Notes: generated by a model not told the origin, from the letters alone. DNA of 64,000 bases from Escherichia coli (GCF_003018255.1 NZ_CP027440.1); one strand, 5' to 3'. Numbered from the stretch's first letter, positions 11,050 through 11,148 are shown. Made by a program: numbers and translations.

Positions 11050-11148
11050 GCCTGATGCGCTGCGCTTATCAGGCCTACGTGAACTCTGTAATATATTGAA
11101 TTTGCATGCTTTTGTAGGCCGGATAAGGCGTTTACGCCGCATCCGGCA
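11050..11148. repeat. BIME: two inverted REP (palindromic unit) sequences with a central linker
   Basis: gcctgatgcgctgcgcttatcaggcctac ... gtaggccggataaggcgtttacgccgcatccggca; a near-identical copy lies at 35848-35946. Confidence 0.8.

Follow-up and report, generated by a model that had tools for sequence, protein, structure and literature searches.

Two REP-containing repeats lie in the same orientation at either end of a 24.8-kb interval in the window, the 64,000-nucleotide stretch of Escherichia coli DNA (NZ_CP027440.1) analysed here, one downstream of rhlE and the other downstream of ybiT. They raise the question of whether the two copies are specially related to each other, and of whether the DNA between them is lost or duplicated by recombination at the repeats. 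We consider it very probable that both are resident, single-copy BIME-1 elements (RIB/RIP) which are targeted by IS621, which have the RNA and IHF roles to be expected from their family, and between which the interval is deleted through recombination of one IS621 copy with another.

Organization of the rhlE and ybiT repeats

E. coli JNE23-011 matches the window at 100% identity, and the gene names rhlE and ybiT are correct. A repeat search of the window returned 11036-11150 against 35834-35948 as the longest direct repeat, ungapped and 85% identical, with a spacing of 24,798 bp that agrees with the 24.8 kb of the original prediction. Sequence reading and alignment confirmed that the REP pairs described after the two genes are both BIMEs, alike in organization and co-oriented. 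In both copies the stated coordinates, 11050-11148 and 35848-35946, coincide exactly with the outer ends of the REP pair, the first base being that of the Z1 REP and the last that of the inverted Y REP, and the central linker sequence held to be common to them is present in each as the 12-nt AATATATTGAAT.

Alignment of the two copies, the check that had been proposed, gave approximately 85% identity, so the copies are not of low identity, but the description "near-identical" was overstated. The 99-nt REP pairs have 15 mismatched positions when counted from the alignment, the elements are 84.5% identical over 142 columns by blastn, and the longest exact match between the copies is 22 nt (TTTGTAGGCCGGATAAGGCGTT). 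A repeat length of about 100 bp had been given, which describes the REP pair (99 nt) but not the whole unit; the similarity runs about 24 nt further on each side, making a unit of approximately 140 bp, and in a MAFFT alignment it extends over 11026-11172 and 35826-35968, or 147 and 143 bp.

The REP tail motif CTTATCMGGCCTAC occurs seven times in the window against 0.39 expected, and its four perfect matches are the four REPs of the two BIMEs. A REP pattern with a fixed 11-nt loop had no match in the window, the loop lengths of Z1 and Y being different. The RefSeq annotation of MG1655 contains no repeat_region features, hence no official REP or RIP names were obtained from that source. A degenerate single REP with a CTTATCCGTTCTAC tail is located at window positions 16003-16040, between hcxB and ybiJ; K-12 has REP-like sequence there, with the ZbiJ sRNA and ybiE annotated.

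Both elements lie between convergent coding sequences and start 30 nt (rhlE) and 39 nt (ybiT) past the stop codon. The two intergenic regions have one layout, consisting of a gene-specific GC hairpin, a left flank, a 30-nt REP (GCCTGATGCGCTRYGCTTATCAGGCCTACG), a 34-nt linker, an inverted 35-nt REP and a right flank, with the following features in window coordinates:

9635-10996, plus strand: rhlE coding sequence, converging on truncated ybiA (11231-11428, minus strand)
11003-11025, plus strand: rhlE-specific GC-rich hairpin directly past the stop codon, with an 11-bp stem, outside the repeat
11026-11049, no strand: left flank motif of the rhlE BIME, ..GCTGATGAACAAACGCAAAAC, found family-wide (consensus TGATGACAAACGCAAAAC) and predicted to pair with the right flank
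11050-11079, plus strand: Z1-type REP of the rhlE BIME, GCCTGATGCGCTGCGCTTATCAGGCCTACG, 29/30 to the reference Z1 (PMC11208160)
11068-11078, plus strand: IS621 target ATCAGGCCTAC in the rhlE Z1 REP, an exact match, occupied by IS621 in 146 of 5,426 genomes
11080-11113, no strand: L linker of the rhlE BIME, 34 nt, with an IHF-like core TAATATATTGAAT at 11089-11101, 12/13 to YAANNNNTTGATW
11114-11148, minus strand: inverted Y-type REP of the rhlE BIME, its reverse complement 35/35 to the reference Y TGCCGGATGCGGCGTAAACGCCTTATCCGGCCTAC, with a partial naRNA4 match
11149-11172, no strand: right flank motif of the rhlE BIME, TTTCACAACAAGCACTTGTCAGCC, an imperfect inverted repeat of the left flank
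11231-11428, minus strand: ybiA remnant (C-terminal 198 nt), context outside the BIME
34195-35787, plus strand: ybiT coding sequence, converging on ybiU (36028-37287, minus strand)
35796-35824, plus strand: ybiT-specific hairpin past the stop codon, outside the repeat
35826-35847, no strand: left flank motif of the ybiT BIME, GGCTGATGACAAACGCAAGATT, beginning the second BIME-1 unit
35848-35877, plus strand: Z1-type REP of the ybiT BIME, GCCTGATGCGCTATGCTTATCAGGCCTACG, 29/30 to the reference Z1
35866-35876, plus strand: IS621 target ATCAGGCCTAC in the ybiT Z1 REP, an exact match, occupied by IS621 in 1,059 of 5,426 genomes
35878-35911, no strand: L linker of the ybiT BIME, 34 nt, with an IHF-like core CAATATATTGAAT at 35887-35899 inside a CCTGCA..TGCAGG hairpin
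35912-35946, minus strand: inverted Y-type REP of the ybiT BIME, 33/35 to the reference Y
35947-35968, no strand: right flank motif of the ybiT BIME, TTAACAAAGCGCATTTGTCAGC, from sequence reading and alignment

The IHF consensus is WATCAANNNNTTR / YAANNNNTTGATW, and by direct reading the IHF-like cores at rhlE and ybiT each agree with it at 12 of 13 positions. The flank motifs are presumably those named 'A' and 'B' in BIME-1. Comparisons were made to the reference REPs Y (TGCCGGATGCGGCGTAAACGCCTTATCCGGCCTAC), Z1 (GCCTGATGCGCTACGCTTATCAGGCCTACG) and Z2 (GCCTGATGCGACGCTGGCGCGTCTTATCAGGCCTACG) of Durrant et al. (PMC11208160).

Assignment to the BIME-1 class

BIME-1 is defined as a single-copy element with a z1 and a y REP and a long conserved L linker with an IHF site, a site which that linker frequently holds (PMC3333891); its size is 140 bp, and its presence or absence varies between isolates (Chiapello et al., PMC1187871). 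Every sequence-level feature of this class was found at both loci: a Z1 REP with an inverted Y REP, a long L linker, a single unit of about 140 bp, and an extragenic position. There is one Z1-L-Y unit per intergenic region, and the repeat search of the window showed no tandem copies. The linker core CAATATATTGAAT(T) is at least 80% conserved across 37 family copies, the linker arms being variable, and both linkers carry a match to the IHF consensus, a putative binding site of the kind that marks the RIB/RIP subclass.

In structure these are two ordinary, already-known BIME-1 elements, and as elements they add nothing new, since BIME-1/RIP have been described from the early 1990s onward and both copies are present in K-12. 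With the BIME-1 of Gilson, Bachellier and Hofnung, which are the RIB of Boccard & Prentki (1993) and the RIP of Oppenheim et al. (1993), they share the architecture, the size of about 140 bp, the location at 3' ends of transcription units, and presence or absence according to strain. No structural difference from that class was seen; the Y REP of the ybiT copy has two substitutions, and IHF binding is predicted for both copies.

BIME-2 was excluded, as the left REP is a short Z1 and not the 37-nt Z2, the linker is 34 nt and not the short S, and the unit is single and not in a tandem array. Like BIME-2 and the REP325-type arrays, which bind gyrase and are the source of naRNA4, the two elements are built of REPs, and the Y REP of the rhlE copy matches Rfam naRNA4 in part, but this match scores 40.7, under the gathering score of 59.5, and Z2, the S linker and amplification are not seen here. 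The flanks of both elements form an imperfect terminal inverted repeat, GCTGATGACAAA / TTTGTCAGC. As to MITE-type features, no empty site was found for the rhlE or the ybiT element.

A third BIME-1 is found in K-12 in reverse orientation between ybiO and glnQ (locus L002, 15981-16242) and is absent from the corresponding window region, 23856-23973. The K-12 element is bracketed by an 11/16 direct repeat (ATTAAG-N5-TGCTG), and the empty site of the window has a single copy, TTAAGAGACGTGCTG; the direct repeat may be a footprint resembling a target duplication.

BIME-1 units with the Z1–L–Y order and the TTGAAT core also occur in Pseudocitrobacter spp. (loci L009, L012, L013 and L026-L028), hence the family is not confined to Escherichia. 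BIME-1 of the E. coli type were further encountered on the Firmicutes assemblies of Desulfosporosinus sp. OT (L011, a 262-bp contig) and Alkalicoccobacillus porphyridii (L016, a 720-bp contig with a coverage of 1.08), contigs which are most likely E. coli contamination. Escherichia sp. MOD1-EC7003 carries three BIME-1-like units in tandem at 130-bp spacing (L019, 9415-9813) and five more such units at approximately 182-bp spacing (L019, 11513-12380), arrays that are atypical because BIME-1 is single-copy by definition.

Relationship between the two copies

The 141-nt rhlE element has matches in at least 40 places per genome in 5,425 of the 5,426 complete E. coli genomes. An alignment of 37 family copies was made from fetched loci and from 20 stretches listed by a pattern scan with one genome per species. 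At 82.3% identity the rhlE-ybiT pair falls at the 84th percentile of family pairs in this alignment (median 72%), whose scan pattern fixed the REP tails and TTGAAT, so that the sample is biased to canonical copies, mostly from other Escherichia and from Pseudocitrobacter. Of the 32 copies taken to be unrelated, five or six are at least as similar to one of the two elements as these are to each other; one of those five or six (L020, 8189-8327) later proved to be the rhlE orthologue. The flank consensus, TGATGACAAACGCAAAAC... and ...GGCATGAACAACGCGCACTTTGTCA, is conserved family-wide together with the linker core in the 37 copies. As judged from the alignment, the likeness of the rhlE and ybiT copies is family-level and not pair-specific; the similarity between the two dispersed BIMEs reflects membership in the family.

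Both elements are found at orthologous sites in K-12 MG1655, at approximately 832,270-832,410 and 857,597-857,735 of that chromosome, with orthologues 97-99% identical and paralogues 82-84% identical. Locus-specific bases are kept in both strains, namely GTGAACTCTG versus GCAGTACCTG, TTTGCATGCTTTT versus TCTGCAGGACTTT, TTTACG versus TTAACG, and CCGGCA versus CAGGCA. The higher identity of orthologues and the preserved locus-specific bases indicate that the copies are old and that no conversion between them has occurred since the K-12 and window lineages split; by this sequence comparison, both copies predate the split of K-12 and the B2-like strain of the window. A recent event linking the two sites, whether duplication, transposition or gene conversion, would make the copies direct relatives and would account for the full-length architecture common to them, including both flank motifs, and for an identity that ranks in the top fifth of the family pairs sampled. 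Such a relationship is nevertheless extremely unlikely, given that both copies exist in K-12, where they are distinguished by the same bases in the linker arms, in the Y loop and at CCGGCA/CAGGCA, that orthologues so exceed paralogues in identity, and that several copies at other loci and in other species are as close or closer.

The ES036 match and the predicted RNA structures

Rfam family RF02751, ES036 (CssrF), matches both elements on the minus strand, with 41.6 bits at 35869-35911, which is above the gathering threshold of 37.6, and with 35.7 bits at 11071-11113, which is below it. These two matches would fit a reading in which the linker is a minus-strand sRNA gene (ES036/CssrF), present as a pair of paralogues in the two repeats; CssrF itself was originally seen by northern blot in Shigella as a band of approximately 290 nt, between dacB and yhbZ (PMC3071730). 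We find this reading highly improbable. The 43-nt model corresponds to the L linker of BIME-1 together with a REP tail, a combination present in all family copies aligned, and a match therefore marks the repeat and not an sRNA gene; from its sequence, RF02751 appears to be a model that should find all BIME-1 copies instead of one particular sRNA gene. In addition, no promoter-like site was found in either intergenic region, the rhlE copy scores under the gathering threshold, and an RNA signal there is to be expected in any case from the convergent 3' UTRs of ybiA and ybiU.

As BIME-1 elements in 3' UTRs, both copies have strong predicted folds, with -75.8 kcal/mol (z = -6.0) for the rhlE 3' UTR and -87.0 kcal/mol (z = -7.0) for that of ybiT, relative to shuffled sequences. 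The models contain either the separate REP hairpins or pairing of Z1 with Y, and in them the left flank is predicted to pair with the right flank, in line with the imperfect terminal inverted repeat that the flanks form. No T-run (intrinsic) terminator was found in either intergenic region, and a reading of the elements as classic Rho-independent terminators was ruled out on this ground. By analogy with the family literature, the L linker as DNA would bind IHF, the REP hairpins in the convergent 3' UTRs would slow 3'-to-5' decay and stabilise the upstream mRNA, and the elements would attenuate read-through between the convergent genes. A 2026 preprint describes REPs as context-dependent terminators or stabilisers whose presence is correlated with increased expression of the two genes in a convergent pair.

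The ybiA deletion and polymorphism at the two loci

The rhlE copy had also been noted to lie next to the ybiA deletion. Compared to K-12, the window has lost 298 bp, comprising the N-terminal two-thirds of ybiA, its start codon and approximately 50 bp upstream, with the junction at 11429/11430. This nearest endpoint and the right end of the BIME unit are 257 bp apart. In K-12, CGCAT is present at both endpoints (CGCATCAC / CGCATTAT), which is the signature of a microhomology deletion, and the same junction occurs in 1,120 of the 5,426 genomes, indicating an old lineage allele. A role of the BIME in the ybiA deletion was rejected on the basis of the distance and the CGCAT microhomology, and the proximity of the two is coincidental.

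Several alleles were found between rhlE and dinG. Those with the BIME have a full ybiA, the truncated ybiA of the window, IS1397 in the loop of the rhlE-BIME Y REP (CB6837), or IS621 in its Z1 REP (UTME-10); those without it have a RelE/StbE toxin-antitoxin pair, with homology lost precisely at the left boundary of the BIME unit, or espX2 islands. The variant allele L029 keeps the rhlE hairpin and loses homology from 11026. The CB6837 insertion resembles the known insertion of IS1397 into palindromic-unit loops (Bachellier 1997; Clement 1999), a likeness that applies to this related genome and not to the window.

As a whole, the rhlE-dinG slot (window 10997-11535; loci L005, L029 and L030) is hypervariable, being filled by ybiA, truncated ybiA, RelE/StbE, espX2, or a hypothetical gene with espX2, and on its right-hand side the breakpoints lie close together, a short distance upstream of the dinG promoter and near TTATTGCGAGCC. 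A further arrangement was seen in Escherichia sp. MOD1-EC7003, a member of a cryptic clade (L020, minus strand), in which a second BIME-1 core (7859-7965) lies inside ybiA and replaces approximately 285 bp. This core is identical at 107/107 nt to the strain's own rhlE BIME core (8204-8310), located about 240 bp away; it does not have the flank motifs usual for the family, and the 20 nt that come next (GGCAACCACGGGCGAGGAAA) are unassigned. The allele with a BIME inside ybiA was found in none of the 5,426 E. coli genomes. Its sequence suggests that a BIME-1 core was recently copied locally, possibly giving a snapshot of BIME mobility, and the accompanying loss within ybiA is an event independent of the window's deletion, in another part of the gene.

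Downstream of ybiT, the alleles comprise two ybiU alleles, absence of ybiU with a decayed BIME, a GH31/MFS island without the BIME, and IS621 in the Z1 REP. The two ybiU alleles (window 35968-37287; loci L006 and L008) are approximately 81% identical in DNA, next to a ybiT that is 97% identical. The gene is wholly absent in about one-fifth of the sampled rows, and in these a decayed BIME directly abuts ybiV.

IS621 insertion and loss of the rhlE-ybiT interval

The natural target of IS621 is the 11-nt ATCAGGCCTAC with a CT core (PMC11208160). Occupied sites have the element at the same Z1 position in both loci, reading ...ATCAGGCCT/IS621/...CT/ACG. Junction queries against the 5,426 genomes found IS621 at the ybiT site in 1,059 and at the rhlE site in 146, the rhlE-BIME Z1 REP of UTME-10 being one example of the latter, and a single strain, Res13-Lact-PEA14-20, has co-oriented IS621 copies in both BIMEs. 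With the IS621 target sites already known in REPs (IS110 family, bridge-RNA recombinase; Choi et al. 2003, Durrant et al. 2024), the two loci share an exact target in each Z1 REP and insertion at the CT core; they differ in that both sites are empty in the window, and the occupancy frequencies and the interval deletion were observed here.

The original prediction regarded the BIMEs themselves as potential substrates for recombination or deletion. Direct RecA-dependent recombination between the 140-bp BIMEs would delete the 24.8 kb or duplicate it in tandem, and its products were sought with rhlE–hybrid BIME–ybiU (deletion) and ybiT–hybrid BIME–ybiA (tandem duplication) queries at a coverage threshold of 80%. 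The IS-free deletion joint was found at this coverage in 0 of the 5,426 complete E. coli genomes, and the IS-free duplication joint likewise in 0 of 5,426, finished genomes being such that transient, unfixed duplications would be missed. The minimal processing segment of E. coli is approximately 23-27 bp, which is above the 22-nt run. This longest perfect match, together with a divergence of 15% that invites rejection by mismatch repair, makes the copies weak substrates for direct RecA action. Shyamala and co-workers reportedly described, in 1990, REP-REP recombination at the join points of duplications and amplifications. The copies are indeed co-oriented direct repeats, and REP-REP recombination at join points is documented (Tobes & Pareja, PMC1525189), but the evidence of the joints leads us to regard the direct route as unlikely at this locus. 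The REP-mediated duplications and amplifications (Salmonella his, F'128 lac and lambda bio junctions) are similar in having dispersed REPs as rearrangement endpoints, whereas no direct REP-REP joint was found here, and the only joint found contains IS621.

The query that detected this joint was a chimera in which a full IS621 was placed between the Z1 half of the rhlE BIME, preceded by 1 kb of rhlE, and the linker and REP half of the ybiT BIME, followed by 1 kb from the ybiU side; it matched at 100% coverage and 99.4% identity, in one place, in strains WEC and AR_0019 only; other genomes bearing IS621 gave approximately 73% coverage. The gene order in both strains is cecR–rhlE–IS621–ybiU–ybiV, and the joint has the rhlE-type hairpin and flank on its left and the ybiT-type linker on its right. 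The 24.6-kb interval was matched in 5,423 genomes and the flank queries in 5,425, a difference of two that indicates two genomes without the interval and fits loss rather than relocation. The survey of rearrangements with BIME endpoints thus yielded the IS621-bearing deletion in 2 of 5,426 genomes and IS-free joints in none, so the predicted deletion of exactly this interval does occur, with one IS621 at a joint inside the Z1 REPs and not by a detectable joint of BIME with BIME. The lost interval holds 22 genes, including dinG, fiu, glnHPQ, dps, ompX and mntR. WEC and AR_0019 are 0.6-0.7% different in the wider flanks and nearly identical over rhlE and IS621. In WEC (L031, 8320-8350) a Z1-type loop, GTAGGCCAGATAAGCGTAGCGCATCAGGCA, is seen in the REP on the right side of IS621, a position held by the Y REP in other strains, and AR_0019 differs from WEC there.

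In the proposed mechanism, IS621 would insert at ATCAGGCCT^AC in both Z1 REPs, giving co-oriented repeats of approximately 1.3 kb, and recombination of IS621 with IS621, most likely RecA-dependent, would leave one IS621 and remove ybiA through ybiT. The doubly occupied strain Res13-Lact-PEA14-20 is a plausible representative of the precursor type of the deletion. We infer the mechanism from the product only. The bridge-RNA recombinase of IS621 might itself have made the deletion at the two Z1 REP sites, as both endpoints are exactly the natural IS621 target; bridge recombinases are able to excise DNA between co-oriented sites (PMC11208160), and a preprint reports large amplifications driven by an IS110-family element in P. 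putida (bioRxiv 2026.03.19.712850). Excision at the outer junctions, however, should leave an IS-free hybrid BIME, of which there is none in 5,426 genomes, and a strain with two co-oriented IS621 copies exists. The single intact IS621 at the joint is the product expected of homologous recombination between IS copies, which favours that route, and we judge a recombinase-made deletion to be quite improbable.

A broader proposal is that co-oriented Z1 REPs are paired landing pads for IS621, that the ybiA–ybiT block is facultatively excisable with its loss catalysed or strongly promoted by the recombinase, and that the map of Z1 REPs pre-determines which blocks can be shed; this we hold to be improbable. 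The endpoints lying exactly at the recombinase target in both BIMEs, the doubly occupied strain and the two deletion genomes are consistent with it, though they do not distinguish between the enzymes that could have made the joint. The relevance of the two BIMEs to genome stability lies in their Z1 REPs attracting IS621, with one of the two sites occupied in one-fifth of sequenced genomes; where both are occupied the interval can be lost, as in the two natural isolates. This is a natural example of a REP-targeted IS turning short, diverged repeats into effective deletion endpoints, and it bears on the use of the IS621 bridge recombinase in E. coli, in which these REPs are native off-target sites. 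What is added here is the natural IS621-mediated loss of this exact interval and the frequencies of IS621 at two native targets, a modest illustration at the population level.

A distinct deletion of approximately 20 kb was observed in the same region of strain SK1402 (L034, NZ_AP046545.1, 6476-8587), where the order is ybiB–IS1397–truncated ybiT–ybiV, and where hcxB through the 5' part of ybiT, as well as ybiU, are missing.
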